Shown here in pieces: positions 1 through 18,999 of a stretch of DNA of 19,533 nt. Below the pieces are notes generated by a model, which saw only the letters and a list, made by a program, of their open reading frames with translations, did not search any database and had not been told where the DNA came from. Each line of letters opens with the position of its first letter. Position 1 is the stretch's first letter. The DNA comes from a virus, in the UHGV virus genome UHGV-0357976, one strand, 5' to 3'. A program made the position numbers and the translations under genes.

Positions 1-1050
1 GCTGCTGATGTGAAAGCCGGTAACAGGCTGTTTTTGAATCTTCCGTCAGGCACAGCTCAGGCCAGAACCGTCCAGGCCGTTAACGGAAACACAGTCACTG
101 TCACCACACCCTACAGCGAAACGCCGGAGGCTGAATGTAACTGGGGTGTGGACTCTGACGATCTGTTTATAGCGCTTTTCCGTGTTACGGGAACGCGGGA
201 CAACAACGACGGTACTTTCGAGGTCACCGGGACGACTTACAACCCTGATATCTATTCCGCTGTTGATACCGGCGCAAGACTGGACGAGCGGCCAGTCAGT
301 GTCATTCCGCCAGGGGTTCAGGCTCCCCCAGGAAATATCGTCGTAGACAGTTACTCTACGGTTAACCAGAACATTGCGATTACCACCATGCGCGTTGCCT
401 GGGATGCTGTTCAGGGTGCAGTTGCGTACGAGGCGGAATGGCGGCGTGACAGCGGCAACTGGATTAGTGTGCCACGAACGTCTTCTCTCGGCTTTGAAGT
501 GCAGGGTATCTACTCTGGTCGCTATCTGGTCCGCGTCAGGGCGGTGAACGCCAGCGACGTTTCATCAGTGTGGGCGACATCACCAGAAGTAAATCTTACG
601 GGTAAAGTGGGCAATCCACCGAAGCCGGTGGGTTTCATCGCGTCTGAAAACGTGGTGTTCGGTATCGAGCTGAACTGGGGGTTCCCGGCCAATACGGACG
701 ATACACTGAAGACGGAAATTCAGTACAGCCTGACCGGTACTGAGGACGATGCGATGTTGCTGGCTGATGTGCCATACCCACAGCGTAAATATCAGCAGAT
801 GGGCCTTAAAGCGGGGCAGATTTTCTGGTACCGCGCGCAGCTGGTGGACCGCAGCGGCAACGAATCAGGGTACACAGAATGGGTGCGAGGACAGGCCAGC
901 ATCGATGTATCCGATATCACCGATGCAATCCTGGAGGACATGAAAGGCTCCGATACGTTCAAAGACATGATCGAGAACGCGGTGGACAGCAACGAAAAAA
1001 TTGCTGGCATGGCTAACGATATCAAACAGGCCAACGACGAACTGGAGCAG
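1..1050 (+). CDS. J-like host-specificity (central tail fibre) protein, 3' portion of a second copy; 5' end is outside the window; no native stop (frame runs on to 1434 through antisense of the minus-strand J)
   Basis: Frame 1 translation from position 1 (AADVKAGNRLFLNLPSG...) is colinear with the minus-strand J protein: roughly 60% identity over the first ~195 aa, then near-identical from LTGKVGNPPKPVGFIASEN to ANDIKQANDELEQ (ends at 1050). After 1050 the translation becomes Cys/Arg/His-rich and non-protein-like (antisense of J). Confidence 0.7.
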
Positions 1051-1704
1051 GTCCAGCTGAGCGCTGTTCCCTGCTACAGATGCAGACAACGTTTTACGCG
1101 CGGCTACCTGCGCCAGGTTGCCCTGAATAATTGCGATAGCAGAGTTCTTCACCCCGCCCGTCATGCCGTCCATAGACACAGAAATCTCGTCGATCTTCAC
1201 TTCGGCCTGAGCCAGCCCGTCAGCGTTCTCCAGGATGTCTTTCGCTTGCTGCTCCAGTTCGTCGTTGGCCTGTTTGATATCGTTAGCCATGCCAGCAATT
1301 TTTTCATTGCTGTCCACAGCGTTCTCGATCAGGTCTTTGAACGTATCGGAGCCTTTCATGTCCTCCAGGATCACATCTGTGATGTCGGAAACATCGATGC
1401 TGGCCTGTCCTCGCACCCATTCTGTGTACCCTGATTCGTTGCCGCTGCGGTCCACCAGCTGAGCGCGGTACCAGAAAATCTGCCCAGCCTTGAGGCCCAT
1501 CTGCTGATATTTGCGCTGCGGATAAGGCACATCGGCCAGCAGCATCGCATCGTCCTCGGTTCCGGTCAGGCTGTACTGAATTTCCGTCTTCAGCGTGTCG
1601 TCGGTATTCGCCGGGAATCCCCAATTTAGCTCGATACCGAATACCACGTTTTCAGAAGCGATGAAGCCAACCGGCTTCGGTGGGTTGCCCACTTTACCCG
1701 TCAG
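595..1704. repeat. Inverted repeat formed by two convergent J gene 3' segments: arms 595-1050 (+) and 1249-1704 (-), about 456 bp each, around a 198 bp asymmetric core (1051-1248)
   Basis: The reverse complement of 1001-1050 is identical to 1249-1298; the next 40 bp differ at 3 positions; by eye the arms are about 92% identical, mostly at third codon positions. Weaker homology continues outward (1-594 vs 1705 to about 2300). Confidence 0.85.
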
Positions 1705-3840
1705 CGTTTTCTCTTCTGAATAGCCCCATCCGGATGAGATTTCTGCGGCATTGATTGCGCGTACGCGCACCAGGTAGCGCCCGGCATAAATCCCCGGGAC
1801 GTCGAATGACGTGGTGGAGCTGCGCGGCACGTTAACCCAGTTCCCGTCGTTGCGGCGCCATTGCGCTTCATAGGCGATAGCGTTCTGCGCCTGGTCCCAG
1901 CTCACGCGCATCGTTTCGACGCTGATATTTTGCTGCACCACAGAAAACGAGCTGATCACGATGTTCGAAGGCGGCGACTGGTTGCCCGGCGGGATCACGC
2001 TCACCGGCCGCTGGTCAATGATGGCTCCGGTATCGATACGGGCATATTTATCCGGGTCGTGCCATGCGCCGGTAATCGAGAAAGTGCCATCATCGTTATC
2101 GGAAACGCTGACAACTCGATACTGCTGCGCGTAGAGCTCGTCAGATTCAACCACCCAGACAGCTTCGGCCTGTGGCGTCTCACTGTATGCCGTGGTGACT
2201 GTGACTGATTCCCCGTTCACGGCCTGAATGGTCCTGCTCTGCGACGCTCCGGAGGGAAGGTTGAGAATAAGGCGATCACCTGGTGCTGCATCAGCTACGC
2301 GGTCAAGTTTGATAACGCGACCGTTAACGGCGCTGATGCGGCCGCCCATAACCTTTCCGGAAAGCAGCTCGTCTGCCACGGCGATGATGTAGCCCGGCTG
2401 CGGAATGTTTCCGTCCAGCCCGACATCAAACGAAACAACGCGATCCTTGTTATTGGTGAGAATACCCCAGCGCCCCTTTCGGTTCGCCTCTGACTGCCTG
2501 GTGCAGCCGATGGCTGTCATTTCCAGCTGATTGAAGCCGTACCGCGCCACCAGCGCCTGCTCAAATACCGGCTCCATCGCGTCGGCATAAGCGTTACCCG
2601 GGTCTGACCATGAAACCAGCGCTGTGGTGTAGCGGCTTTTCGTGGTGCTGCTCGAATAGGTGAAGCGACCGCCAACAACGTTAGCGCGCGTATAGCTGTA
2701 ATCAACATCGCGCGGCATGTCAGCCAGGGCCACAATCTGATCCCCGCCCCAGTAGGTCATGCCACGGAAGATAGCGGCAAAATCACGCAGGACTGTGTAG
2801 GCGTCGTTCCGGTCCTGAATGTACACGTTGCAGGTATAACGTGGTTCTGTACCATTGCCCCCTTTGCCGTCTGGTACCATCTGATCACAATACTGAGCAA
2901 CCTGATAAAGCGTCCATTTATCAATATTCGCAGCGGTCAAACGGTGCCCAAGGCCGAACCGGTCAGAAACAACCAGGTCGTAAAAAATCCACGCAGGGTT
3001 ATCCGTCCATGCCCACTTAAACGCACCGGTCCATGTACCGCTATAAGTGCGGGTTTCAGGGTCGTAGGTATCTGGAACGCGGATAACGCGGCCGCGCGGT
3101 TCGCATGAAATTTGAGGAATAGAGCCGTTGAACTGGCTTGAGTCGAATTCGACGTAGAGCAGCGCGGTGTTCGGGTAGCGCAGTTTGGCGTCAATCACCT
3201 CGGTGAAGCTCTGCAGCATCATCGTGTCGCCGATCTTCGCGCTGTTGGCGTCAGAGGTAATCTTACGCAGACGTATTGTCCAGGTGCTGCCAGCCTGCGG
3301 TAAATCGATACGGTGGCTGCGCTCATAACCTGAGGTCGTTTTACCGGTCACGCTGGTATTGAGTACCGTCTGCCATGTGCCGCCGTCCGTCTGTAGGTCA
3401 ATCGCATAATTGACCGAGTAACCCACCAGATCGCCGTCGTCTTCCTGTTTGAAAAGCGAGGGCCATTTAAGACGCAGGCGAACTGCTGAAAGCTGCGTAT
3501 TGGTAAACGTGCGCGTCCAGGCTGTGGCACTTGATACCTCAGTTCCTACGCTGATCTCGTTTTCGGTACCGGGAATACCCTGAATATATTTTTGCGCCTG
3601 AGTTCCCGCGCGAAACTCCCACGTTACCCCGCTGAAGTTTTGGGAGCCGTCAGCATTCTCCAGCGCTGTTCCGTCCAGGTAGATATCTTTGCCGGTGAGC
3701 TGCCCTGCAAACTCACCTTCCCCAAGCGCAACGAGGATTTTTGCCTTCGCTACAGATTGCAGATCATCAGGCTGTTCGGTAGGAGTTCGGGAACTTGAGC
3801 TGCCGCCCTTGCGGCCTTTTAACACTTTATCTGTAGCCAT
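865..3840 (-). CDS. J: Tail tip / host specificity protein J (lambda gpJ family); the homology-supported part is 1051-3840, and the last ~62 codons (865-1050) are antisense of the plus-strand J copy
   Basis: 991 aa ORF with recalled gpJ-family blocks (EVIDAKLRYPNTALLYVEFDSSQF, YTCNVYIQDRNDAYTVLRDFAAIF), fibronectin-III-like repeats, and position directly after the I homologue. The C-terminus ends in sequence that is the mirror of the plus-strand copy. Confidence 0.9.
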   Translation of the reverse strand: MATDKVLKGRKGGSSSSRTPTEQPDDLQSVAKAKILVALGEGEFAGQLTGKDIYLDGTALENADGSQNFSGVTWEFRAGTQAQKYIQGIPGTENEISVGTEVSSATAWTRTFTNTQLSAVRLRLKWPSLFKQEDDGDLVGYSVNYAIDLQTDGGTWQTVLNTSVTGKTTSGYERSHRIDLPQAGSTWTIRLRKITSDANSAKIGDTMMLQSFTEVIDAKLRYPNTALLYVEFDSSQFNGSIPQISCEPRGRVIRVPDTYDPETRTYSGTWTGAFKWAWTDNPAWIFYDLVVSDRFGLGHRLTAANIDKWTLYQVAQYCDQMVPDGKGGNGTEPRYTCNVYIQDRNDAYTVLRDFAAIFRGMTYWGGDQIVALADMPRDVDYSYTRANVVGGRFTYSSSTTKSRYTTALVSWSDPGNAYADAMEPVFEQALVARYGFNQLEMTAIGCTRQSEANRKGRWGILTNNKDRVVSFDVGLDGNIPQPGYIIAVADELLSGKVMGGRISAVNGRVIKLDRVADAAPGDRLILNLPSGASQSRTIQAVNGESVTVTTAYSETPQAEAVWVVESDELYAQQYRVVSVSDNDDGTFSITGAWHDPDKYARIDTGAIIDQRPVSVIPPGNQSPPSNIVISSFSVVQQNISVETMRVSWDQAQNAIAYEAQWRRNDGNWVNVPRSSTTSFDVPGIYAGRYLVRVRAINAAEISSGWGYSEEKTLTGKVGNPPKPVGFIASENVVFGIELNWGFPANTDDTLKTEIQYSLTGTEDDAMLLADVPYPQRKYQQMGLKAGQIFWYRAQLVDRSGNESGYTEWVRGQASIDVSDITDVILEDMKGSDTFKDLIENAVDSNEKIAGMANDIKQANDELEQQAKDILENADGLAQAEVKIDEISVSMDGMTGGVKNSAIAIIQGNLAQVAARKTLSASVAGNSAQLDLLQFVVGLFDIVSHASNFFVAVHRVLDHVFERIGAFHVLQDCIGDIGYIDAGLSSHPFCVP

Positions 3841-3850
3841 ATTGCGCCCA

Positions 3851-3873
3851 TAAAAAAGCCACCCGAAGGTGGC
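3851..3873 (-). terminator. Intrinsic-terminator-like hairpin (GCCACC-CGAA-GGTGGC) followed by a U-tract on the minus strand, in the I-J intergenic space
   Basis: 6 bp GC-rich stem at 3858-3873 with a 4 nt loop; the A6 run at 3852-3857 on the plus strand is a U6 tract 3' of the hairpin on the minus strand. Confidence 0.5.
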
Positions 3874-3892
3874 CAGAAAAAAGGTTAGTTAT

Positions 3893-4501
3893 CTACTGCT
3901 GATCTTCGACATAAATTCCGGCAGAAATAATCGCTCCGCCGATTCGACGCTTACCATAAAGCAGAGGCACCGGGTAGCCTTGCGCTGCAGTGTTGGTTAC
4001 CCCGCCAAACGCATACGATGCACGGTTATCTGCGCTTTGTTTACTGGCTATGCCTGATGGCTGCGGTGAAAGAAGCTGAATAACCCCACCGAGGACCAAC
4101 GAGGCGCCAGTGGCAGCAGCAAACCCCGTCAATCCACCAGCAGCGAAAGCAGCGCCAATACCGCCAGGGCCAGTCAATACAGCAGCAGTAATAAGCACGG
4201 CCCCCAGGATTGTCTGCAAAAGACCAGCGCGTTTACTACCGATAATTACAGGCATAATCCTTACTACATCGCCTTCAGAGGGAAAACCCATCTCATCTGC
4301 GGCAATATTTCTTTTCCCTTTGAACACCGCGAAAGTTAATCCGCGACGTTTACTGCTGATCATGAAACTTTCGAAACCTGGCAATGTTTTACTTAAAGCA
4401 ATAGCAGCTTCACCAGTTCGCGCTATCAGTCGTTGATGGGTTCTACCGAATGTCTTTCCTAACACTCCGCCGAGCTGAATTGTTGTCATTACTTCTTTCA
4501 T
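3893..4501 (-). CDS. I: Tail tip assembly protein I (lambda gpI-like)
   Basis: 202 aa; Gly/Ala-rich hydrophobic central segment and C-terminal LVLGGVIQLLSP ... AAQGYPVPLLYGKRRIGG blocks resembling recalled lambda gpI; sits between K and J. Confidence 0.8.
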   Translation of the reverse strand: MKEVMTTIQLGGVLGKTFGRTHQRLIARTGEAAIALSKTLPGFESFMISSKRRGLTFAVFKGKRNIAADEMGFPSEGDVVRIMPVIIGSKRAGLLQTILGAVLITAAVLTGPGGIGAAFAAGGLTGFAAATGASLVLGGVIQLLSPQPSGIASKQSADNRASYAFGGVTNTAAQGYPVPLLYGKRRIGGAIISAGIYVEDQQ

Positions 4502-4510
4502 ATTCTCACC

Positions 4511-4533
4511 ATAAAAAAACCCGCCGAAGCGGG
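4511..4533 (-). terminator. Intrinsic terminator (CCCGC-CGAA-GCGGG plus U-tract) immediately downstream of the lipoprotein gene
   Basis: Hairpin at 4520-4533; the A-run at 4513-4519 on the plus strand is a U7 tract after the stem on the minus strand; 12-25 nt beyond the lipoprotein stop at 4545. Confidence 0.6.
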
Positions 4534-4544
4534 TTAAGTCTTGG

Positions 4545-4886
4545 TTAGATACAGCGTTCTATTACTTTAATCCGGCTGTTTATTCGATAAGCAAATAGCC
4601 CACCTTGATGACGGAATTCAATCTTGGTAATTCCGCCGTCCGATATTAAATCAACCATCTCAAGTTGAGATTGTGTAAATACAGTTTTACCACCGTCATA
4701 AGGCTGAATAAAAACGCTTCCATATTTTTGGCTTTCTTCTTGCCAGCCAGAGAGTATGCATTCAGCTACTGCGTCAATTTGTTTCTTCGATTGAAAAGTA
4801 TTTGACGCTGGTTCCTTCCGGAGATCCTGCATACTCGAACAACCAGCCATGATTATCAAAGAAAGTGTCAATAATGTTTTTTTCAT
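4545..4886 (-). CDS. Small secreted lipoprotein (moron) inserted between tail genes K and I; function unknown
   Basis: N-terminus MKKTLLTLSLIIMAGC has a signal peptide and lipobox (IMAG-C); AAGGGGA Shine-Dalgarno about 9 nt upstream of the ATG at 4886; visibly AT-rich compared with the flanking tail genes; followed by its own terminator. The ORF-track start at 4922 would overlap the K stop, so the internal Met is preferred. Confidence 0.7.
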   Translation of the reverse strand: MKKTLLTLSLIIMAGCSSMQDLRKEPASNTFQSKKQIDAVAECILSGWQEESQKYGSVFIQPYDGGKTVFTQSQLEMVDLISDGGITKIEFRHQGGLFAYRINSRIKVIERCI

Positions 4887-4915
4887 ATCCCTATCCCCTT
4901 TGGTTTTGCAAAAGG

Positions 4916-5626
4916 TTAGCACAGAGATTTGTAACGTAGAATCTTCATCGTCCTTTCCTGCCAGTAGCCACCATACGGCACGCGCTGGCTCAGATGTCCG
5001 TACAGGTGGTGCAGCAGCATGTTACCCTCCAGTAAAATCCCGGCATGATTCCACTTATCGGCCTGCACCTGCATGATGACGAGGTCCCCTTCCTGAGGCG
5101 GGCCGTCAAACTCCCTGAATCCGCATTCATACCAGCAATCCTGATAAAAATTGTCCGGATAGGCGTTTTCCCACCAGGGATAATCCACCCGGTAATCGTG
5201 GAGCTCGATACCATGCGTTTGCCGGAAATAGCTCATTACCAGCCCCCAGCAGTCGAAGTGTCCAAGCACAAACGGACGCTCCAGCAGTGGCAGTTCTCCG
5301 CGCGGCTGGATGGTGCGTAAATCCCCCTCCGGCCAGCTCACAATATGCCAGGGTAAAAGCGTTGCGTCGCATTGCGCTTTATCCAGTTCGCTCGGCTGCG
5401 TAGTGGCGTCAGGGTGACTGTGAACGATGGCGATCACCGTACCCCAGTCCTCAGCAGCTGCATAGTCTTCTGGCGACAGGTGAAAATGTTCTGTCGGCTC
5501 GGTAGCGAGGTTACTACATGGAAAATATTTCTCTACCCGGCTCTTTTGCGCCACCACGCCGCAACACTCACGAGGATATTCAGCTGCAGCATGCGCCATA
5601 ATCGCATCGATGGTTTTCTGACGCAT
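4916..5626 (-). CDS. K: Tail tip assembly protein K (lambda gpK-like; MPN/JAB plus NlpC/P60-type domains)
   Basis: 236 aa; MRQKTIDAIMAHAAAEYPRECCGVV and HSHPD motif; strong resemblance to recalled lambda K; position between L and I. Confidence 0.88.
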   Translation of the reverse strand: MRQKTIDAIMAHAAAEYPRECCGVVAQKSRVEKYFPCSNLATEPTEHFHLSPEDYAAAEDWGTVIAIVHSHPDATTQPSELDKAQCDATLLPWHIVSWPEGDLRTIQPRGELPLLERPFVLGHFDCWGLVMSYFRQTHGIELHDYRVDYPWWENAYPDNFYQDCWYECGFREFDGPPQEGDLVIMQVQADKWNHAGILLEGNMLLHHLYGHLSQRVPYGGYWQERTMKILRYKSLC

Positions 5627-5627
5627 A

Positions 5628-6383
5628 TCAACTCCTGATCAGCGACGTACCCGGGAACCCACCAAACGAGAGTTCGTTGTTTTCACCGAACCGAAGTTTG
5701 CAGGCCGTCAGCGTTCCGTTGCATTCATCCAGTGACGGATCGCTTACCTGGTTGTTGTTTTTGTCGAAATAGCGCGTACCTGCATAGTCGCAGCCGTCGC
5801 CGGTTCGGTACTTGTTCCGGATGCACCATGTGCACAGAGAATGAAGCTGGCGGGTAGGTATCATCAGCCCCTGCAGATCCATAGGGCTGGATAGTGTGAA
5901 CTCAACAACTTCATTGTTTTCACTGCTCTTTGCATCGATGTAGAAAACCTTCAGCTTCTCCTGGGTCGGATCGGCTGTCGGATTGCCTCCGGTGAAGTTT
6001 CTCGCATCGAGATACTTACCAAGGGTGTCATGTATCGTCACCTTCGCCTGCAGCATATCGTCGTAAGCCAGGCAAAGCGCGGTGATCGAACTGTCGAGGT
6101 TAGCAACCGAAAGTTTTGGCTGGGCACTACTTCCCGAGGTTGAAGCTTCGATCCCCTCAATCTGGCATGGCCACGCTTTATACTCCTCACCCTGCCACCA
6201 GATAGATTTTGCTGGCAGTTTATTTTCATCACCGCCAGCAGCGATAATTTCGGCTTCAGAGTGCGCAAGACTGTAGCTGTGAAATCGCAGCACATCACCT
6301 GTACCAAATGCCGTGCCATCCACTTCGAAAAGCCTGACCACATCGCCAGGTTCGAGCTTCTGAAAATCTGCGTTAAGACTCAT
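5628..6383 (-). CDS. L: Minor tail protein L (lambda gpL-like)
   Basis: 251 aa; C-terminal cysteine cluster (CTWC ... C ... C) typical of gpL; position between M and K. Confidence 0.85.
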   Translation of the reverse strand: MSLNADFQKLEPGDVVRLFEVDGTAFGTGDVLRFHSYSLAHSEAEIIAAGGDENKLPAKSIWWQGEEYKAWPCQIEGIEASTSGSSAQPKLSVANLDSSITALCLAYDDMLQAKVTIHDTLGKYLDARNFTGGNPTADPTQEKLKVFYIDAKSSENNEVVEFTLSSPMDLQGLMIPTRQLHSLCTWCIRNKYRTGDGCDYAGTRYFDKNNNQVSDPSLDECNGTLTACKLRFGENNELSFGGFPGTSLIRS

Positions 6384-6721
6384 GGTTTGTAGGCCTGTTC
6401 AAAAGTTGCAGAAAGATTAAATAACCCGGCACCAAGTGGCGTTGGTGTGTAGGTGTCGCAGCGGTAAAGCCCGAGAGGCTCAAGCGGCGGGCGCCACTGA
6501 AACGCCGTCACGCCCGCATGGCGATCGAGAAAGTCTTTAATCGCCCCGATATACGTTTCGGTACCGGTAAACTGGAGAGTCCATTTCTGCGAGCGGGGAT
6601 TAATCCCGTCGCCGGAAACCTGCTGATATCCGTCACCGAACTGCGCGGTGCGCCGTCGGAATGTCACTTCCTGCTCCGCGTTCGGGCGCGGACACCAGCT
6701 GAATGTTTCTATAGCCATCAC
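6380..6721 (-). CDS. M: Minor tail protein M (lambda gpM-like)
   Basis: 113 aa; RFGDGY motif region; 4 bp overlaps with the tape-measure stop and the L start; position directly after the tape measure gene. Confidence 0.8.
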   Translation of the reverse strand: MMAIETFSWCPRPNAEQEVTFRRRTAQFGDGYQQVSGDGINPRSQKWTLQFTGTETYIGAIKDFLDRHAGVTAFQWRPPLEPLGLYRCDTYTPTPLGAGLFNLSATFEQAYKP

Positions 6722-9138
6722 CGCCCTCCTTTTGCCAGATTCCAGACCGCGCCACCGGGTGAAAGGTCACGGCCTATCAACTCGCGGTATCGCCGATCAA
6801 CAAAACTACCTACCTCCCGCCCGAATTGCTCATATCCACCGCTAGCCTGAGTCTGGGTATTCCCATTGCCATCAATCTGAATACTGACCTGAGGAGCACT
6901 ACTACCACCCGGTGTTAAGCCTGAGATTCCCATAGCACGCACGCCCAGCGATCCGTCAGCGGCGCGGGTCAGTGGCATAATAGCCTCCGGCCCAGCCTCC
7001 CCCATCAATCCGGCCCCTTTGGCAAAGGCAAACAGTGTTGGAGAGCTGACGACAGAGTTACTGTACTGACTGAGATCGGCAGAAGAGTAAACGCCGCCTT
7101 TGGCGTTGAATTGCAGGCTCGCCCCGTAGGACTGAATCGCAGTACCGCTGCTGGCGGAAGACGATGCGGCACCACCGAACAATGAGCCTATCGAGCTGGC
7201 TGCATTGGCGATCATCATGTTAACCATCACCTGTTCGATGATTTTCAGAACACTGACACCCCAGTCTTTCCAGCTCGCTTTATTGCCGTTGAGCATGTCG
7301 ACGATATTGCTGCTGATACCGGAAAGCGCGCTTTTCATAGCGTCCGCCGCCAGCGTCGCATAGTTAGTTGAATCATCTACCCAGTCAGCGAGACCGTCTC
7401 TGGCGCCAGTCACCCAGTCAGACTGCAGCGCATCAATTTGACTGTAATAATCCTCCTGGATGCCCAGCCTCTCAGCTTGTGCATCCTTTAATGCCTGGGT
7501 TTCGCGGTCATAAACTGTCTGGCTGATATCTCCTGACTGATACTGCTTTTGCAGATCGCGCTGCTGATCGAGATAACTGCGCTCTATACTCAGCCTTTCC
7601 CTCAGCCTTTCACGCTGCTTGTCACCGAGTCCGGCCCCCTGAATATCCACGCCCAAATCTGCACGTGCATTCTCGTTCTGCTCCTGCAGATTTGCCACGA
7701 ACGCCGCTACCTTCGCGTTTTCTTCATTAGCTTTTTTGACGGCATTAAGGCGATCAACTTCCTGAGCCAGAGACGCAAGTCGTTTCTTCTGGGTTTCGTT
7801 AAGCCCCTGCAACTTGCCGTCAGCTATATCGAACTGCAGTTTTTGCTGCTCGGTCACAACAGCAGTTTTTTTGCCGGTGGTATCGATCAGCTCAATCTGA
7901 CGCATGTAACTGCGCTCAGCGCTTTTAAACGCTGAATCCAGTTTCTGACCAGAGGTATTTTTTTGCGGCTTACCGTTTGTTTCCCCGGCGCCAAGGGTAT
8001 AGTTTGTTTTGACTGGCTCGGGCAGTTTTATTTTCGGTAGAGTAGATTGGGAGTTTCTCAAAAAGGCCAGTCGCCTCTGGAGCTCAGCCCTTTCGGCCTC
8101 CTTACCGGATACGTCCATACCTATTCTGTTGAAACTCGCCAGTATGCCTTTATCATCGAGATCTGCATTCAGGTTCTTGATGCGCCGTTCAATTTCTGGA
8201 ATGGAGGCATTCAGGCCGACCGAACTCCCACCTTTGTACTGGTCTATCAGCTTTCCGGCCTCGGCTCCTACCCTTACCAGCCAGGTGGCAAGGTCCACTA
8301 CCCCACCAACCAGATCAGTCAGACCCTGAATAACAGCCGGGTCTTTAAATACATCCCCCATATCTCCAATAGACTTCTGGAGCCCACTCAAATCTACGCT
8401 GGCGAGCCCTGCAGCAAGTTCAATTTTGACGCCGTTGACCTGCGTCTCCATATCCTCAAACAGGGCGTTGACTCTGACCAGCTTTTCAATATCTGCGTCA
8501 TCGGGCGCCACACCAAACTTCTTCGCGGCATCCATATACTGACGCAGCTTTTCACTGCCATTGTCCAGGAGCGGCAGCATCTTTGACAGGTCATTACCCA
8601 GACTCTCCAGGATGGTAGTCTTCTCGGCGTTGGACTTAACTTTCTCCAGTGCGTCGCTGATAGCCAGGAGTTGCTTGTCGGGAGATTCTCCGGCCAGTTT
8701 CTTAGCCGACAAACCCAGAGCGTCCAGCGCACCGACCGCCTCACCAGATTTATTAAGAACGGCATCACCGATTTTGTCTCCGACATCTTTAAAGATATCG
8801 GCCATCTGATCGCCGGAAACACCTGCTTTTTCTGCAGCATATTGCCAGGCTAACAGGGACTGCGTGGACATGTTAAGTGACTTTGCCCAGCGGTCTGATT
8901 CGGTAATCTGACGTGAAGTGGTTTTGAGCAGGTTATACCCCGCCACTCCGGCTCCGATGGCTGCAGCCCCGACTGCTGTTGCGAATCCGGTCATGGCAGC
9001 TGCAGCGGCAGCGGCATCCTCCTTTACCTGCTTACGCCATTTTTGTGAAGCTCGCTCAGCCTGCGAGAGGCCTGAGACAAAACCGCCCACTTTGGCAATC
9101 AGGTCGATCGTCAGCGTGCCCAGTGATTTGGAAGCCAT
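6718..9138 (-). CDS. Tail tape measure protein
   Basis: 806 aa, long alpha-helical and low-complexity protein with a Gly/Ala/Ser-rich C-terminal part; located between the G/G-T chaperones and M. Confidence 0.9.
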   Translation of the reverse strand: MASKSLGTLTIDLIAKVGGFVSGLSQAERASQKWRKQVKEDAAAAAAAMTGFATAVGAAAIGAGVAGYNLLKTTSRQITESDRWAKSLNMSTQSLLAWQYAAEKAGVSGDQMADIFKDVGDKIGDAVLNKSGEAVGALDALGLSAKKLAGESPDKQLLAISDALEKVKSNAEKTTILESLGNDLSKMLPLLDNGSEKLRQYMDAAKKFGVAPDDADIEKLVRVNALFEDMETQVNGVKIELAAGLASVDLSGLQKSIGDMGDVFKDPAVIQGLTDLVGGVVDLATWLVRVGAEAGKLIDQYKGGSSVGLNASIPEIERRIKNLNADLDDKGILASFNRIGMDVSGKEAERAELQRRLAFLRNSQSTLPKIKLPEPVKTNYTLGAGETNGKPQKNTSGQKLDSAFKSAERSYMRQIELIDTTGKKTAVVTEQQKLQFDIADGKLQGLNETQKKRLASLAQEVDRLNAVKKANEENAKVAAFVANLQEQNENARADLGVDIQGAGLGDKQRERLRERLSIERSYLDQQRDLQKQYQSGDISQTVYDRETQALKDAQAERLGIQEDYYSQIDALQSDWVTGARDGLADWVDDSTNYATLAADAMKSALSGISSNIVDMLNGNKASWKDWGVSVLKIIEQVMVNMMIANAASSIGSLFGGAASSSASSGTAIQSYGASLQFNAKGGVYSSADLSQYSNSVVSSPTLFAFAKGAGLMGEAGPEAIMPLTRAADGSLGVRAMGISGLTPGGSSAPQVSIQIDGNGNTQTQASGGYEQFGREVGSFVDRRYRELIGRDLSPGGAVWNLAKGGR

Positions 9139-9157
9139 AAACTCTCCGTTGGCGGCA

Positions 9158-9819
9158 TTATGTCCAGCTGGCTCTGGCTTCCTCTAACGAGATTGGTCCA
9201 TCAGCAGCTTTGACTTTGGTAAAGTGAAGTGTGAAATCGGTCGGGTTGAATGGTGGGCGCTTGGGGTCTCTGTTAACGTTGGCTATCATGCTGCTCACCA
9301 GCCCGGCACCCCACTCAACCCGCAACATAGGGTTCAGACTCCCGTATCGTTCCCGGTACTTTGCCCAGAGTTGGGACTCTTTGAATGAGAGGACTTCCCG
9401 CGCTTCGGCGATTGTTCTGCCTCCGATTCCGTTGAGGACGAGCTCGCACCAGAATTCGTCTTCGGCGCTGAGCTCGAAGTCTTTCCCAGATCGTTAACTT
9501 CCTGAATGGCCAGAAGCAGTGCTACCGTCAGGCCGCCATCCAGTGCACCACGTTCAGGATCTGCCTCACCAGTAATGTCAGCCGGGGTGAAGATGGGTTT
9601 ACCATGTTCATCGCAGATGGATGCGGCGATACGCCCTGCCACACCATCGACCTTACCACCAAAAGCCAGCACATCGGACGTTGCTGTGTGATAACCCATC
9701 GGGCGAACATACACGGTCGCGGTGATTTTTTTATCGCCTTGCGTCCAGGTGATTTCTTTCTCAACCGGGCGACCGGTAAACGCGCCGGACTCCTTGAGTG
9801 CATCAAGTGTTAATTTCAT
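9158..9819 (-). CDS. T: Tail assembly chaperone G-T fusion made by programmed -1 frameshift (G frame 9819-9481, T frame 9481-9158)
   Basis: Slippery heptamer G GGA AAG at 9481-9487 in the G frame; the -1 frame downstream encodes a protein-like sequence (DFELSAEDEFWCELVLNGIGGRTIAEAREVLSFKESQLWAKYRERYG...) ending at a TAA at 9158-9160, just upstream of the tape measure start. Confidence 0.75.
9334..9819 (-). CDS. G: Tail assembly chaperone G (zero-frame product)
   Basis: 161 aa ORF (MKLTLDALKESGAFTGRPVEKEITW...) between the major tail and tape measure genes; contains the slippery site at codons 111-113; the zero-frame tail after the site is Ser/Gly-rich low complexity. Confidence 0.8.
   Translation of the reverse strand: MKLTLDALKESGAFTGRPVEKEITWTQGDKKITATVYVRPMGYHTATSDVLAFGGKVDGVAGRIAASICDEHGKPIFTPADITGEADPERGALDGGLTVALLLAIQEVNDLGKTSSSAPKTNSGASSSSTESEAEQSPKRGKSSHSKSPNSGQSTGNDTGV
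9481..9487 (-). other. Programmed -1 ribosomal frameshift slippery heptamer GGGAAAG (G to G-T)
   Basis: Exact heptamer in X XXY YYZ register within the G frame (CTG GGA AAG); same motif as the lambda G-T frameshift. Confidence 0.75.
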
Positions 9820-9838
9820 TATTAATCCTGATTAATAA

Positions 9839-9852
9839 GGGCGTTGCCGCCC
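9839..9852 (-). terminator. GC-rich hairpin (GGGCG-TTGC-CGCCC) directly after the major tail protein stop; possible attenuator
   Basis: 5 bp GC stem with 4 nt loop; on the minus strand it is followed by the U/A-rich UUAUUAAUC; lies between the major tail stop (9858) and the G start (9819). Confidence 0.4.
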
Positions 9853-9857
9853 TGATT

Positions 9858-10358
9858 TTATGGGGTCACGACTTTTGGCACCCATACAGCAGAGCCGGAG
9901 CGCTGGATAGATGCAGAAGTAGAAACAACCGTGTTTGCTGCAAAATCAAACGGGAAGTCGGACACATAGCCTTTGAATACGAACCATGTGCGGCTATCAG
10001 GTAGCACCAGGCCATCGACTGCACCGGATGCACCATTTTCAGCCGCAGTTGGCGATGCGGTTCCGTCTGACCATCCAATCGCGAAGGTCAGGTCCTGATC
10101 CTCTTCGTCGTCCGAAATGGACAGGTTGTAGAGCATGATGTGGCTGGTATTTTTAGGATCAGCGTTAAGCGTCAGTGATGCTGTGCCAGGCGTTCGAAGA
10201 CCACGCTTATAGCTGCGATCAAAGCGTTCAGAAAGACAGGTGTCTTCAATCTGGTCAGCCGGATTGCTGCCGGGTGAAAATGCAGTGATACATTCAACTT
10301 CGCTCACCTTGCCTTTTACGAGCACAAAGAGCTGCGTACCTTGCGTCAATACAGACAT
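9858..10358 (-). CDS. Major tail (tube) protein
   Basis: 166 aa ORF immediately upstream of the G/G-T chaperone genes, the conserved siphovirus position; GGAG Shine-Dalgarno 6 nt upstream of the ATG. Confidence 0.75.
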
Positions 10359-10374
10359 TGTTATCTCCGGTCAT

Positions 10375-10397
10375 AAAAAAACCGGCTCAAGGCCGGT
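10375..10397 (-). terminator. Intrinsic-terminator-like hairpin (ACCGGC-TCAAG-GCCGGT plus U7) upstream of the major tail gene
   Basis: Stem at 10381-10397; the A7 run at 10375-10381 on the plus strand is a U-tract after the stem on the minus strand; between the stop at 10413 and the start at 10358. Confidence 0.5.
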
Positions 10398-10412
10398 GGT
10401 TGAATAATACGT

Positions 10413-10778
10413 TTATCGAGTGACTATCCAGTCAACATCGAATGAGTAGCGATAGCGCTTTGTTTCTGGGTCTCTTTCCTGTCCGCCCCAGCGCGTGATA
10501 TGCGCGTGCGGCTCAATGGCATCCCGCAGCGCAGTAGCCACGGCAATCACTTCATCCACGGTGTCGGCATATGCATCCACCTGCAGCGTGAAAAAGTCTG
10601 CGTCAGGGCGCTGGGCAATGTAGTTCTCTGGAGAACCGGTGATGTTCTGCCAGACCACATAGGGATAGACCACGTTGTCGTCCTGAATTCCGAAAGGATA
10701 AATTCTTACCGGATTGCTTCCGAGTAAGTCAGTGACTTCAGGACTCGACGCGCAAACAGAAAAAATAGGGGCAATCAT
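10413..10778 (-). CDS. Tail completion / neck protein (DUF3168-like)
   Basis: 121 aa; pattern RIYPFG ... YPYVVWQNITGSPENY ... LQVDAYADT ... resembles recalled DUF3168 phage proteins; position between the HK97 gp10-like gene and the major tail gene. Confidence 0.7.
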   Translation of the reverse strand: MIAPIFSVCASSPEVTDLLGSNPVRIYPFGIQDDNVVYPYVVWQNITGSPENYIAQRPDADFFTLQVDAYADTVDEVIAVATALRDAIEPHAHITRWGGQERDPETKRYRYSFDVDWIVTR

Positions 10779-11323
10779 GCAGTGGTTCCTTTCTTCATGG
10801 CCAGCCTGATAGCGCGATCAATAGCCTTTCCCATTTCCGTAGAAAAAACATTAATCACGTCATTATCTACGCCGTTCATTGCAGGTCGGAGGATAGGCCG
10901 CGCTGATGTGTGCTCAGTACCAAACTCAAGAAAACGCCAGTACCAGGTATCTCCTCCTGGATTGCCTTTATCTCCTGAGGTTTTGTATGTTTTACCCGCT
11001 CTGCCTTTTCTGACGTTTGCCTTTGTATTTGCATACTGCCTGGCACCGCCCATTACCCCGACACGGAATGCCAGATCACCTGTCCTGCGGAATTGCTTGC
11101 TGCTGAAGCTGGCGACGATATTTTTGTGGATTGCTTCTTTAGTCAGAGGATCATCAACTCGTGACGCGTTGCTTCTGGCCCGATCCCTTATAATGTTTGC
11201 CGCCTTACGCAATGCAAACCGACCGGCTTTATTACGGGTGACTTCTGATACGGCCTCCATTTTCCCAAGAAGTGATTCAAGCCCGGTAAGACTTACCTCA
11301 ACACTATCAGCCATCATTAACAC
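10775..11323 (-). CDS. HK97 gp10-family head-tail joining protein
   Basis: 182 aa; motifs RKGRAG ... YWRFLEFGT ... RPILRPA typical of the HK97 gp10 family; conserved position. Confidence 0.75.
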   Translation of the reverse strand: MLMMADSVEVSLTGLESLLGKMEAVSEVTRNKAGRFALRKAANIIRDRARSNASRVDDPLTKEAIHKNIVASFSSKQFRRTGDLAFRVGVMGGARQYANTKANVRKGRAGKTYKTSGDKGNPGGDTWYWRFLEFGTEHTSARPILRPAMNGVDNDVINVFSTEMGKAIDRAIRLAMKKGTTA

Positions 11324-11639
11324 CCTCAGAACAGGGAAGCGTCAGGTATTCACGTCCGCTTTTTGGATCGGGCAGAACACCATGGATGTTATACACAGCA
11401 CCACGAAACAAGATGCGATGTTTTCTGGTAACTCCGGCACGGTAGCGAATAACAATACGGGTGGTTATTTCACCCTGAGAAGCCTGCGCAGCAATAAATT
11501 CACGCGCTGACAATGGTGAAACTTCGGCCCGGACAGTCGCAACATCTCGCCAGGTATTAATTACGGCTCCCGTTGTCGGGTTCTGCACTTTTACTGGCTC
11601 CTGCAGAGTAATCCTGTGGCGCAATTTCCCGGCCTGCAT
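11307..11639 (-). CDS. Phage head closure / head-tail adaptor protein (Phage_H_T_join-like)
   Basis: 110 aa; GKLRHRITLQ ... W ... AEVSPLSAREF ... TTRIVIRYR pattern matches the recalled family consensus. Confidence 0.75.
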   Translation of the reverse strand: MQAGKLRHRITLQEPVKVQNPTTGAVINTWRDVATVRAEVSPLSAREFIAAQASQGEITTRIVIRYRAGVTRKHRILFRGAVYNIHGVLPDPKSGREYLTLPCSEGVNDG

Positions 11640-11640
11640 G

Positions 11641-11838
11641 TTACCCCCTGGGTTTACCGCTCAGATAGGTTTGTTGCTCTGCAGTTTCATCTAGTTCACC
11701 AGCCAGCGACTGGATAATGACATCGCAAAGCGCCATATTTGATTCAGCCAGACGGCTTATCGCTTCCGTCTGCTCCCTCTGCGCTGTGATTTGTTCCCGT
11801 ATCACTGCTATCAGTTCGTTTACCAGTTGCTCGTTCAT
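11641..11838 (-). CDS. Hypothetical small acidic helical protein (65 aa)
   Basis: ATGA start/stop overlap with the upstream 78 aa ORF (translational coupling); its stop lies 1 nt before the head-closure ATG; no recognisable family. Confidence 0.5.
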   Translation of the reverse strand: MNEQLVNELIAVIREQITAQREQTEAISRLAESNMALCDVIIQSLAGELDETAEQQTYLSGKPRG

Positions 11839-12071
11839 AAGCTATTTTTGCCCACTTTTTTATCCACTCGCTCCGTTGCGCGCATCCAGACGCGAATCGT
11901 TGCCTGCGCCGTTTCCGCGCCGCCTGAAAGCTGCTCTCTGCCGCTGATCCTCTTTACCTCAGCCGGGACCGGGTTGCCACCTGTCCACGATTCAACCGGC
12001 TGACCAGATGGATCGCGCGAAGTCGTGAAGGTGAGAATTTTTACCCGGTGCCTGAATCGTCCTGGTTCCAT
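11835..12071 (-). CDS. Short head-closure-like paralogue (78 aa), homologous to the N-terminal two-thirds of the Phage_H_T_join family
   Basis: GRFRHRVKIL ... PSGQPVESW ... PAEVKRISGREQ ... ATIRVWMR parallels the full-length head closure protein at 11307-11639; ORF ends at about 70% of family length. Confidence 0.55.
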   Translation of the reverse strand: MEPGRFRHRVKILTFTTSRDPSGQPVESWTGGNPVPAEVKRISGREQLSGGAETAQATIRVWMRATERVDKKVGKNSL

Positions 12072-12397
12072 CAGGAGCCCTCCTCTGATTCGGCTTTACC
12101 GCGCCAGTTGCGATGAATGAACATCATGCGTTCGGCGGCTGCATTCTCATAAAGCTGCACTTCGCTTTGTGCCGTCCGGTGTTCAAACATGTCAGCAAAG
12201 ACAAGCAGAACGGCGCCCTTAACGGCGGCAGGAATATCAGCCGCAACCTTCCATGCTGGTTCATCGCACCAGCGCATGCAGTAGTCAAAAGCGGCCTGGG
12301 CGTACAGCGTGATCAGCTCGTCCCTGTCGTCTTCCTCAAACTCAATCTGCTGCTTAAACAGACTGAGGGAAATTACATCCAGAACATCTATCGCCAT
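12071..12397 (-). CDS. gp6-like head-tail connector protein
   Basis: 108 aa; ITLYAQAAFDYCMRWC motif region typical of gp6-like connector proteins; located directly after the major capsid gene. Confidence 0.75.
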   Translation of the reverse strand: MAIDVLDVISLSLFKQQIEFEEDDRDELITLYAQAAFDYCMRWCDEPAWKVAADIPAAVKGAVLLVFADMFEHRTAQSEVQLYENAAAERMMFIHRNWRGKAESEEGS

Positions 12398-12400
12398 ACG

Positions 12401-12424
12401 TTAAAAGGGCGGGTTTACCCGCCC
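12401..12424 (-). terminator. GC-rich hairpin (GGGCGGG-TTTA-CCCGCCC) plus short U-tract directly after the major capsid gene; probable attenuator
   Basis: 7 bp stem at 12407-12424; on the minus strand it is followed by UUUUAA (12401-12406); between the capsid stop (12431) and the connector start (12397). Confidence 0.5.
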
Positions 12425-12430
12425 CCTCCA

Positions 12431-13588
12431 TCATGAGCCAGAAGAGAAGGTGCCCTTGATGATTGCTGTCGGGCGATAATGCGCCAGCGCCAGACGCTCT
12501 TCGCACAGGATGGTCAGCATGTTTTTCACGAAGTTATCGCGGTCTTCACGGCTAACTTCCACGGTGGCATCCATGCGATCCCAGACCTGTGAGGCCATAT
12601 CGAAACCGCCTACGGTAAAGGTGCCGGCGGCCTGCGCCTTAGTCGGAACCACTGGCAAGCCCCACATGATGTTACTGGTGAATGCCTGAGGACCACCGAA
12701 GATATAGCGGCCTTCATTGTCTTTCAGCAACGCGATGTTGTGCCAGTCGCGCGGGTTCAGGACGATACCGGAAGCGCTGAACTCAGACTCGGTCACCTGA
12801 TAAATAGCGTGAGCGATAATGTCAGCGCGGGTGTCGCCGGTGGCATTCAGCGAGGTGTCATAGGCGGTTGCCACTTTGTTCAGCCCTTCCAGGTTATCCC
12901 CGGTACCGTCGCCGTTCAGCAGCTGGCCCTCTTCCTTCAGTGCCAGGCCGTACATGAGGCGGTTGTTAATGTAGGACTGAAGCATTGGCGCATCATCCAT
13001 CACCTGACGTGATGCCTGCACCCAGTGCGCGATGGTCTTCACGTTCGCGGTTTGTTTGCTGAAGGTGATATCCGATTCTGGCTTCAGTGCTTTCTCTGCC
13101 ACCACGTCGGCGTTATTGGTAAACACCTCTTCACGCACATATTCCAGAGCGTTACTGGAAGTGCGGCCCTGAGCCAGCAGATCACGAATGGTAAGACGGC
13201 GCAGGCCTGGCATGATGATGCCTGGGATCTGCATAGGCTGGATCAGTGAGCCAGCCGAATCAGCGTCACTGCCTAGTGACTTGTTAAACGTTTTAGCGCC
13301 AAAGGTGCCCTGTTTACCGTCCCATGACTTAATAAGCTCTTCAGCAGCCCGTTCAGAGAAGGATTTCTTCTCACCAGGATTCTCAGCGCCGGATGCCAGT
13401 TTCTGTTCCAGATCGAAGAGGCGAGTGCCGGATTTGGTCAGCTCTTCCTGTACTTTCATCAGGTCGGACTGCAACTGTTTGGAAACCTGGCCTGTGCTTT
13501 CGATTTCTGCTTTCTGCGCATCGAAAAGCTGGGTCATTTTCTGCTGGGATTCTTCGATAGCTTTTTGAATGAGAGCGAGTTCAGACAT
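12431..13588 (-). CDS. Major capsid protein, HK97 family (with N-terminal delta/scaffold domain)
   Basis: 385 aa; N-terminal ~100 aa is coiled-coil-like and charged, followed by a capsid-like body; directly downstream of the prohead protease, as in HK97-type head modules. Confidence 0.85.
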   Translation of the reverse strand: MSELALIQKAIEESQQKMTQLFDAQKAEIESTGQVSKQLQSDLMKVQEELTKSGTRLFDLEQKLASGAENPGEKKSFSERAAEELIKSWDGKQGTFGAKTFNKSLGSDADSAGSLIQPMQIPGIIMPGLRRLTIRDLLAQGRTSSNALEYVREEVFTNNADVVAEKALKPESDITFSKQTANVKTIAHWVQASRQVMDDAPMLQSYINNRLMYGLALKEEGQLLNGDGTGDNLEGLNKVATAYDTSLNATGDTRADIIAHAIYQVTESEFSASGIVLNPRDWHNIALLKDNEGRYIFGGPQAFTSNIMWGLPVVPTKAQAAGTFTVGGFDMASQVWDRMDATVEVSREDRDNFVKNMLTILCEERLALAHYRPTAIIKGTFSSGS

Positions 13589-13590
13589 AA

Positions 13591-14280
13591 TTATTTACCT
13601 AAGTTAGAAGGGAAAGATTTGATGCTCTGAAGCAGAGCGTTTATTTGTGCTTCGTTTCCGTCGCCCTCGGACTCGCTCCGAATCGCTGACTTAAACCGGG
13701 CAATTAGCCCAACTGCCTGTGATTTGGTGAGGCCGACTGAATCCCTCAGCCAGTTCTCCACATCACGAATCGTTTCAATACCATCGACACTTTTCATGGC
13801 TGCGATGCCAGCCTGTTCGTTGGCGGGGAAAGTGCAGACGCTGATTTCGCGCAGAGCCTGGATATTCTTAAAAATGCGGCCTGTTGGAATGATGGTGTAA
13901 TCGTCTTTCGAAACGGAAAAGCCAACCGACATACCTTCAACCGTACCGTGCTGCATTGCCGCTTTCAGGTCAGCGGCGCCGCTGTGTCCTGGGGTAAGTT
14001 GACCGCGCACATACAGGCCTTTTTCGTCCTCAGCCAGGCTGTCCCATTTGCCAACCGGCAGTTCCCACGTCCTGTGGTTAAAAAACATCGCCACTTTTCG
14101 GGTCTGGTTCGCCAGCGCGTTTTTAAACGCCCCGGGCAGAATGATGTCGCCATCGGAATCGGTGTTATTAAAAACAGAGGCGTAGCCTTCAAAAATCCCC
14201 TGTTTACCGTCACCGGTGAATTTGATTTCTGTCTCGTCGAAGGACAGCGTTTTTACGATTTCAGGCATTACGGCCCCCAT
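13591..14280 (-). CDS. Prohead protease (HK97 family); true start may be the internal Met at 14268
   Basis: 229 aa between the portal and major capsid genes; size and position fit HK97-type prohead maturation protease. Confidence 0.8.
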   Translation of the reverse strand: MGAVMPEIVKTLSFDETEIKFTGDGKQGIFEGYASVFNNTDSDGDIILPGAFKNALANQTRKVAMFFNHRTWELPVGKWDSLAEDEKGLYVRGQLTPGHSGAADLKAAMQHGTVEGMSVGFSVSKDDYTIIPTGRIFKNIQALREISVCTFPANEQAGIAAMKSVDGIETIRDVENWLRDSVGLTKSQAVGLIARFKSAIRSESEGDGNEAQINALLQSIKSFPSNLGK

Positions 14281-14285
14281 AAAAA

Positions 14286-17074: not shown

Positions 17075-17080
17075 AGTCTT

Positions 17081-17566: not shown

Positions 17567-17751
17567 ATGTCAACACCTTAAAACTAAAAAAATCGGGTTA
17601 GCGTTAAATTCAAACTTTGGCGGCGGTCATTTAGGGAAAAGGTTTTGAAGATTTGATCCCCCCCCCTGCCATGAATGCGATTCATTCTCATTTGATATCG
17701 TTGCATTTGAAATGATTTCACATGATAGATAATCGACTTGCCGCCGCCGCG
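17567..17751. other. Non-coding region upstream of the terminase small subunit gene; candidate cos / packaging-initiation region
   Basis: 185 bp with no ORF; contains a C9 homopolymer (17658-17666) and inverted GC-rich motifs (GGCGGCGG at 17619-17626, CCGCCGCC at 17741-17748); location between the HNH and terminase genes is where cos lies in HK97-like phages. Confidence 0.3.
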
Positions 17752-18963: not shown

Positions 18964-18999
18964 GTATTGCTCCTGTTTTTTTTGGTTTTCATCGCCCGA

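Follow-up and report, generated by a model that had tools for sequence, protein, structure and literature searches.

Two copies of a lambda-like tail gene J face each other on opposite strands at the left end of the window (the whole stretch of DNA analysed, 19,533 nt), separated by a short single-copy centre. Such an arrangement could be an invertible switch, a duplication of one gene, the scar of a rearrangement between two prophages, or a join that never existed inside a cell. The structure was dissected base by base, compared with related J loci, and searched for in public genome, metagenome and protein collections.

Anatomy of the Inverted J Genes

J sequence lies at 1–1050 on the plus strand and at 1249–2298 on the minus strand, colinear and convergent, as originally predicted. 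The two copies remain in register across all 1050 nt in an ungapped comparison, and a repeat search returned inverted arms of 558 nt (493–1050 and 1249–1806), 87% complementary and spaced by 198 nt. Similarity is unevenly distributed along this length. In the inner part (598–1050 versus 1249–1701), 32 of 453 positions differ (~93% identity), 29 of these in the third position of a codon; the longest uninterrupted matches span 71 nt (838–908) and 57 nt (994–1050). The outer region, 1–597, shares ~60–65% identity (about 62%) with its partner. The ~456 bp arms (595–1050 and 1249–1704) had been described as near-identical, a wording that is too strong for inner arms of only ~93% identity. The main features are as follows.

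1–1050 (plus): 3′-truncated J fragment, 'J_B', equivalent to codons 517–866 of the 1362-aa J of E. coli ARL09/232 (L003)
598–1050 (plus): left 'arm' (conserved J module, plus copy), with a best match of 93.4% among the other alleles seen
840–847 (plus): Chi site (GCTGGTGG) within the conserved plus-copy module, oriented toward the core
865–3840 (minus): chimeric J_A ORF of 991 aa, with 930 native and 61 antisense residues, lacking PF09327
1050/1051: sole breakpoint, ...GAACTGGAGCAG/GTCCAGCTGAGC..., with microhomology of at most 1 nt
1051–1248 (minus): single-copy 'core', native residues 865–930 of the minus-strand J ('J_A')
1051–1434 (plus): 127 antisense codons and a stop, reached by read-through from the plus frame
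1249–1701 (minus): right 'arm' (conserved J module, minus copy), with 98.7% identity to L003 and L085
1452–1459 (minus): homologous Chi site in the minus copy, oriented toward the core
3893–19533 (minus): remainder of prophage A, with intact HK97-like tail, head, terminase and lysis module; context, outside the junction

The 198 bp core does occur only once, and the 66 native J residues that it encodes (QAKDILEN...AGNSAQLD) are confined to the minus strand. Each frame reads on into the antisense of the other copy, and a native stop is missing from both, which agrees with the first description of the locus. Open from base 1, the plus frame is native up to 1050 and ends with a stop at 1432–1434; the minus-strand ORF is native for 930 residues before its 61 antisense codons. 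Spurious antisense ORF calls equivalent to the read-through tail are also found on normal J genes in public data (P0001–P0003).

A Single Breakpoint

Two junctions had been proposed, at 1050/1051 and at 1248/1249. Only the first is a breakpoint, and the second marks where, on the inner side, the two copies cease to resemble each other. Aligning the window to native J homologues, the suggested means of placing the breakpoints, showed that every homologue aligns up to 1050–1052, where the native protein continues '...NSAQLD/RIDEVI', and database matches all end at these positions. On the plus side, native alleles continue CAG-CA(A/G)-GCG (ELEQ/QAK), that is, ...GAACTGGAGCAG-CAAGCGAAAGAC... in the plus sense. 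On the minus side they continue CTGGAC/CGTATTGAT (AQLD/RIDEVI), or ...GCTCAGCTGGAC-CGTATTGATGAGG... in the minus sense.

The junction is clean and free of Ns, and no microhomology or snap-back seed beyond 1 nt is present at it. An imperfect similarity noticed by eye (11/18), relating the NSAQLD region to antisense KDILEN sequence, was rejected, since it predicts 11 extra bases that are absent. The plus end (L003 J nt 2598) falls within a family-wide mosaic boundary at 2591–2613, where 62 HSPs end, and the minus end lies 123–129 nt inside a conserved unit common to many J alleles, near k−1 for k = 127. The junction is ~1 kb from one window edge, and the opposite edge is within a multi-copy lysis gene.

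Two Distinct J Alleles

Judged by their sequences, the two copies are different natural alleles of J. The plus copy is 97.0% identical to nt 1549–2598 of the L003 J over all 1050 nt, with only two amino-acid differences, and positions 1–597 are 99.8% identical to L003, L085 and L086. The variants in its arm module are individually rare yet present in natural alleles, and only one is private. When IMG/VR and JGI were scanned with a 35-mer for alleles closer to this module, eight loci emerged, none above 92.7% identity.

The minus copy represents the J gene of an HK97-like prophage, intact in other respects (prophage A), ~99% identical to phage JQ086370, and the JQ086370-type J matches it at 99.3% down to position 1106. 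The right arm is contiguous with the rest of J_A, which is 98.4–99.3% identical to its closest HK97-like relatives; the core differs from nt 2599–2796 of the L003 J by 8 nt and one amino acid. Prophage A also shows 98.4–99.3% identity to its closest relatives, has no gaps against L015, and carries the same ORF set as L005, L012 and L013. Among 5,426 complete E. coli genomes, the top megablast match to the whole window is 98.7% identical and begins at 1052. One complete genome is matched by both alleles, the only such case, and there they are ~1 Mb apart. The arms themselves correspond to a conserved central J module, 85–93% identical across dozens of alleles that share its mosaic boundaries.

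These identities bear directly on a foldback (snap-back) origin, in which a single J gene would have been duplicated in inverted orientation, after the manner of tandem-inversion duplications or of foldback artefacts in MDA and long-read data, and its left arm later replaced or diverged. Two arms around a short asymmetric centre are the classic signature of such an event, and the literature amply documents foldback and palindromic artefacts (PMC12870357, PMC6218980). However, the arms differ (~93% inner, ~62% outer) and match separate natural J genes at 97–99%, the junction has no short inverted repeat that could seed a snap-back, and at least two further rare events would be required. The divergence of the arms effectively refutes a foldback origin. 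The 'palindromic rearrangement' of one gene, offered in the original prediction, fails likewise, the arms being distinct alleles with outer parts only ~62% identical. A diversity-generating retroelement was also rejected: the 32 differences involve all base types, not adenine specifically, and are nearly all synonymous, and the repeats are inverted and 453 nt long. For the HK97-like relatives sharing the ORF set of the window, the Pfam gene lists include no reverse transcriptase. A hairpin telomere was considered and discarded.

Loss of the Tail-Tip Domain

Pfam matches to the 991-aa minus-strand ORF were limited to FNIII-A_GpJ (PF24801, 1.3e-50) and Phage-tail_3 (PF13550, 1.3e-13). The Phage_Tail_Tip domain (PF09327), which occupies residues 992–1128 of the native J of L012 and 1090–1227 of that of L003, was absent from both window copies in the same search. 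The view that this is not an intact tail operon is upheld by related loci (164 compared, 172 in all), each of which has a single J. Complete J gene calls among them are 1151–1363 aa long. At 17 loci retrieved by their tape-measure and I proteins, J is normal or the contig ends before or within it, and none is identical to the window. The join looks like a dead, non-functional junction and not like a working genetic switch.

The structure was not encountered elsewhere. An exact junction 32-mer had no match in GTDB representative genomes, IMG/VR or JGI metagenomes, no junction-spanning protein occurs among 5.8 billion (a peptide search returned only native J fragments or spurious antisense ORFs), and an exact-protein look-up of the 991-aa chimeric product found it not on record. 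Nothing in the 5,426 complete E. coli genomes matches across the junction. Self-comparison of 164 related J loci gave no J-J inverted repeat, so that no natural precursor, in the form of convergent neighbouring J genes, was seen, and a literature search found no description of a tail-to-tail J-J structure.

A Proposed Invertible Segment

If the 453 bp arms recombined, the core would be inverted, switching which J copy carries the 66-codon segment. The exact runs of 71 and 57 nt would suffice for occasional RecA-dependent exchange, and Chi sites face the core in both arms. Even so, PF09327 and the native stop are missing in either orientation of the core, so that neither restores a complete J. 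The arms, singled out as a special recombination substrate of 456 bp, are nothing other than the module conserved throughout this gene family; their ~7% divergence would strongly depress homologous exchange, and the structure is conserved nowhere among the 164 loci.

Nor does the window hold the machinery of a switch. A tblastn search with the Pin-like resolvase of L008 found no serine invertase in it (best E = 1.3), and the HK97-like relatives with a matching ORF set have structural and lysis genes only in that region. No 26 bp hix/gix-type site was present anywhere in the window at up to three mismatches from TTNTCNNAAACCNNGGTTTNNGANAA, which we take to be the crossover consensus. A flip-flop function is thus considered very improbable.

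Origin of the Join

There is, in our estimate, roughly an even chance (about 0.5) that the join is an in-vitro or assembly chimera, and we lean slightly towards this over an in-vivo scar between two prophages. The J_A gene of the HK97-like prophage, 3′-truncated and native to codon 930 on the minus strand, abuts, inverted and without homology, the J_B fragment of a different allele, which is 3′-truncated on the plus strand and stays native to the counterpart of codon 866. Joining homologous genes tail-to-tail at nearly the same codon automatically yields the 'palindrome', and the 198 bp core represents the 66 codons by which one copy outreaches the other. If the join is artefactual, chimeric DNA or an incorrect assembly path would have been kept at a place where multi-copy mosaic J genes break assembly.

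An artefactual origin is supported by the junction microhomology of at most 1 nt, unlike verified spontaneous inversions in Salmonella, which all have inverted microhomology of at least 12 bp; Salmonella candidates with 1–9 bp failed verification and were ascribed to ligation chimeras (PMC3411829). The absence of the junction from the genomes, metagenomes, proteins and J loci searched points the same way, as do the location of both ends at points where assemblies are prone to branch when a sample contains several J genes, and window-edge positions of the kind expected of a short-read contig. The lack of decay elsewhere (an open plus frame with two amino-acid changes, and an intact ORF set in prophage A) is likewise in its favour; were the scar real, the event would have to be recent.

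Other considerations weaken the case for a chimera. No k-mer is common to both sides of the join, so that some reads must carry it, and a low-coverage chimeric edge normally loses to the true path in a well-covered isolate assembly. Random ligation gives no reason for J to lie on both sides at near-homologous codons, a coincidence for which an additional argument of 'assembler selection' is needed. The k−1 signature (k ~127) fits the minus side only, and each arm is a genuine allele, clean and not the product of a collapsed consensus. The de Bruijn-graph routes considered (a U-turn at a shared vertex, a palindromic vertex and a k−1 overlap) were rejected, as none reproduces the sequence.

A real scar, left by illegitimate (non-homologous) end joining of two lambdoid prophages, is a serious though somewhat less probable explanation. 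It could have arisen by deletion between two convergent prophages or by a two-break inversion between co-oriented ones. In a hairpin version, the inverted J modules would pair, cuts would fall at the stem-loop boundary (1050, plus copy) and 198 nt into the loop, and the ends would be joined; in a nuclease version, a sequence-specific cut at the same conserved J site in both prophages would be followed by unequal resection. In favour of a scar, the arms are genuine and distinct alleles, the junction is clean, and an inverted join is seldom the invention of an assembler unless some reads contain it. On the plus copy, the endpoint is exactly at the end of J-allele homology, the expected stem-loop boundary, and the single-stranded DNA folds into a 453 bp stem with a 198 nt loop at −570 kcal/mol. 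The hairpin model would explain the inversion, the presence of J on both sides and the near-homologous endpoints.

Against a scar, the hairpin loop before deletion would have been several kb, a size that disfavours extrusion. Homology-independent inversions and deletions exist in enterobacteria but are rarer. The junction is unique, with no second assembly, protein or locus, no convergent J-J neighbours occur in the 164 loci, and the alleles are ~1 Mb apart in the sole complete E. coli genome that matches both. Trimming of the two ends by RecBCD at Chi was rejected, the Chi sites being ~200 and ~400 nt inside the ends and not at them. Verified enterobacterial rearrangements have homologous repeats of at least 8–12 bp at their endpoints (PMC3411829), against which the value of at most 1 nt found here is atypical.

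In its most elaborate form, the scar would record a hairpin or cruciform event in a wild enterobacterium, with convergent prophages paired through their J modules, cut at the stem-loop boundary and rejoined without homology, leaving a stable 1.1 kb near-palindrome that, by way of its Chi-flanked arms, might still flip its core or act as a fragile site. This full scenario is quite improbable.

What follows for biology depends on the origin. If the join is artefactual, the source organism would have two ordinary J genes, and mosaic, multi-copy J genes would be sites of assembly error. If it is real, it would be a single-strain scar linking two prophages tail-to-tail, and an HK97-like prophage that is intact in other respects, prophage A, would have lost the ability to make an infectious tail tip. 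The palindrome needs nothing more than homologous genes abutting in opposite orientation. The locus carries little biological weight and should not be treated as a candidate inversion switch ahead of read-level validation.

Comparison with Known Systems

Relative to lambda-like TipJ (J), J_A keeps the N-terminal domains, while the C-terminal PF09327 and the native stop are absent from both window copies. Scars of illegitimate recombination in enterobacteria, and deletions or inverted duplications stimulated by inverted repeats, such as the tandem-inversion duplications of Salmonella and the rearrangements induced by SbcCD and palindromes in E. coli, resemble it in the near-palindrome, the short asymmetric centre, the endpoint at the edge of inverted homology and the truncated genes on both sides. 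Documented cases usually have at least 8 bp of microhomology or identical arms, in contrast to the microhomology of at most 1 nt and the diverged arms seen here. Homologous recombination between lambdoid prophages of E. coli, which produces chimeric prophages and large inversions, likewise involves two co-resident lambdoid prophages and mosaic tail genes. Its products, however, are colinear hybrid genes, and it cannot give a tail-to-tail join outside shared homology.

The invertible tail-fibre segments of Hin-family systems (Mu G/Gin, P1 C/Cin, e14 P/PinE and the shufflons of E. coli P2-like prophages; PMC4272514) are similar in having inverted repeats in a host-range gene and coding on both strands around a centre. 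They differ in their crossover sites of ~26–34 bp, an adjacent invertase, and C-terminal cassettes that complete the ORF either way, whereas the inverted copy here is the middle of J (codons 517–866, colinear). Ligation, foldback and inverted chimeras produced during library preparation or whole-genome amplification, together with misassemblies at multi-copy prophage genes (PMC3411829, PMC10908179, PMC6218980, PMC12870357), share with the window the inversion, the near absence of microhomology, occurrence in a single dataset and a repeated gene family. In classic foldback chimeras both arms come from the same molecule; with two alleles, as here, an inter-molecular chimera or a path error would be needed.

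Inverted J Copies and Reading Frames

A repeat search of the window returned one large inverted repeat (493–1050/1249–1806; 558 nt, 87% complementary, spacing 198 nt). In an ungapped comparison of nt 1–1050 with the reverse complement of 1249–2298, register was kept along the whole length, and identity per 50-nt bin rose from about 60–65% in 1–600 to 88–100% in 601–1050. The inner 453 nt (the arms, 598–1050 and 1249–1701) differ at 32 positions, 29 of them at third codon positions, with two amino-acid changes. These results bear out the original prediction of inverted J copies around a core, as does the native J sequence encoded there for its claim that the core codes for J on the minus strand only. 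The features are:

865–3840, minus strand, J ORF of 991 aa
1 to a stop at 1432–1434, plus strand, frame open from base 1
1051–1248, coding on the minus strand only, core of 198 bp with native J sequence QAKDILEN...AGNSAQLD

Read in antisense, the conserved J module holds a long open frame, with an end motif common to all (...AGLSSHPFCVP-stop), and this frame is called as a hypothetical protein on normal J genes in public ENA and JGI assemblies (protein records P0001–P0003). Its parts in the window are 865–1050 (minus) and 1051–1434 (plus).

A Single Junction

The minus-strand alignment stops at 1050–1052 in all native J homologues (E. coli genomes, phages and exact-protein contigs), and the native protein runs on past the breakpoint as ...NSAQLD/RIDEVI.... 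Among 58 motif matches in related loci, representing 16 distinct continuations, ...NDELE is followed by (Q/L)(Q/H)A(K/Q/L)... and in none by VQLS. Because the homologues stop here and the native continuation is never VQLS, 1050/1051 is the sole discontinuity, with at most one base (G1050) assignable to both sides. A second junction had been proposed at 1248/1249; this point proved to be only the end of the shorter copy.

Two J Alleles

The window is 99.3% identical to a related J locus (L013) over 1106–18686 and to a segment of phage JQ086370 over 1106–17615, has no gaps against another segment of that phage, and carries the ORF set of HK97-like relatives. The minus copy belongs to an HK97-like prophage (prophage A). 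A small conserved ORF (4545–4922, minus strand) lies between the K-like (C40 peptidase/JAB) and I-like tail assembly genes; its counterpart in relatives is 113 aa, with a Pfam match on record in none of them.

The plus-strand copy aligns over its full length, at 97.0%, to nt 1549–2598 of the J gene of E. coli ARL09/232 (locus L003; 4,089 nt, 1,362 aa), and over the outer 597 nt it has a single mismatch (99.8% identity) to L003, L085 and L086. By sequence comparison it is a different allele from the minus copy. The fragment is itself a sharp mosaic with a boundary at 597/598; against the approximately 170 J loci, and against every complete E. coli genome and phage that was searched, its 598–1050 part reaches at most 93.4% identity, and the differences are nearly all synonymous, built of individually rare variants. 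Foldback of a single gene was ruled out, as the arms are different alleles, and the same difference makes foldback followed by divergence extremely improbable.

By Pfam, the window J has FNIII-A_GpJ and Phage-tail_3 and is without Phage_Tail_Tip (PF09327), which lies near the C-terminus of native relatives. If the join is real, this domain loss would put a normal tail tip beyond prophage A.

Conserved Module and Mosaic Boundaries

Dozens of J alleles match window 584/598–1050 at 85–93%. The 453-bp high-similarity segment is the conserved central module of this J family, and the arms are not special: a tail-to-tail join of any two family J genes near codon 866 would give the same arms. Mosaic boundaries in the family are very sharp and shared: in L003 J coordinates, 72 of 256 megablast HSPs begin precisely at nt 2143 (window 595–598), and 62 stop within nt 2591–2613 (window 1043–1065); a short hypervariable linker follows, up to nt 2667. 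The plus-copy breakpoint (nt 2598) falls inside the second of these family-wide boundaries. The minus-copy breakpoint (nt 2796/2797) lies 123–129 nt inside a conserved unit (ATGGACGGCATGACGGG...) that 116 of 172 loci carry.

L003 J carries a 288-nt (96-aa) tandem duplication of this unit (nt 2668–2951 and 2956–3239, 98.9% identical; locus coordinates ~5120–5691), and two unit copies occur in only 1 of the 172 loci. Complete J gene calls, where available, span 1151–1363 aa, a range to which this duplication probably contributes. Chi sites (GCTGGTGG) occur at homologous positions in the conserved module of both copies (840–847, plus; 1452–1459, minus), each oriented so that it would halt RecBCD coming from the core side; three more lie on the minus strand (2547, 4134 and 15510).

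Occurrence Elsewhere

The junction 32-mer had no match in GTDB representative genomes, IMG/VR or JGI metagenomes, and protein look-up found no record of the 991-aa chimeric protein. A 97-aa junction-spanning peptide, searched against 5.8 billion proteins, matched nothing but pieces of native J and antisense ORFs spuriously called on J genes of normal structure; no protein crossed the junction. Inverted repeats that include J were absent from all 164 related J loci compared (64 GTDB species representatives, 80 contigs from IMG/VR and 20 further loci), the window alone having one, and convergent neighbouring J genes, the natural deletion precursor, were not seen in related J loci. Downstream of J in one related provirus (IMGVR_UViG_2869846256_000002) is a 433-nt inverted repeat, 77% identical (9316–9747/10552–10983), which may be an invertible side-tail-fibre segment.

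Origin of the Join

Homology-driven processes, whether RecA/Red in vivo or repeat-induced graph paths in silico, keep colinearity. Because they cannot give a tail-to-tail join outside shared homology, a non-homologous join is left as the origin. We give a library or assembly chimera a probability of about 0.5. Microhomology of at most 1 nt fits ligation-type chimeras; among verified enterobacterial rearrangements, by contrast, no inversion had less than 12 bp and no deletion less than 8 bp, and candidates of 1–9 bp did not pass verification (PMC3411829). Also in keeping with an artefact would be the uniqueness of the junction among the collections searched, the lack of decay anywhere, the position of both ends at branch points of a multi-J graph, with the minus end ~k−1 (k = 127) into the shared unit, and the placing of the junction ~1 kb from one window edge with the other edge in an Rz/lysozyme region of many copies, much like a contig built from short reads. 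Of 5,426 complete E. coli genomes, 4,676 contain that region (19250–19533, Rz/rrrD-like lysozyme), at 9,934 places in all. Similarity to the closest prophage relatives ends at 19437, 96 nt short of the window end, as would fit a contig that terminates at a repeat.

A real scar of illegitimate deletion or inversion is a serious, if tentative, alternative. Both arms are clean, genuine alleles, and no assembly-graph route to the window sequence could be constructed, so reads must carry the join. In a hairpin version, convergent J modules pair (a 453-bp stem, −570 kcal/mol by computed folding), one cut falls where stem meets loop and a second one 198 nt inside the loop, and joining of the ends follows. 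Such a model fits the geometry, accounting for the orientation, for J on either side and for an endpoint at the homology edge, but the precursor arrangement it needs is rare, and the loop would have to be several kb long. Probability left over from the readings weighed here goes to other explanations.

Comparison with Known Systems

Recombination between the arms, inverting the core, had been suggested as a flip-flop. RecA-mediated exchange would be possible in principle, as the arms share identical stretches of 71 and 57 nt, but they are 7% diverged, and inversion would only shift 66 codons between two truncated genes, with no functional outcome. No invertase was found in the window by tblastn, for which the query was the Pin-like resolvase of related locus L008, and no hix/gix-like site was found either; the suggestion, not upheld, is very improbable. 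A DGR was ruled out by the mismatch spectrum between the copies.

The known programmed inversions in E. coli prophages all depend on Hin-family invertases and exchange complete C-terminal cassettes (PMC4272514). An invertible tail-fibre segment looks similar, but the window structure fails every defining test, and what it holds in inverted form is the central part of J. Inverted chimeras of library or assembly origin and scars of illegitimate recombination both resemble it, and both are ordinary. There is no sign of a new kind of element, and the value of the structure is as a caution.
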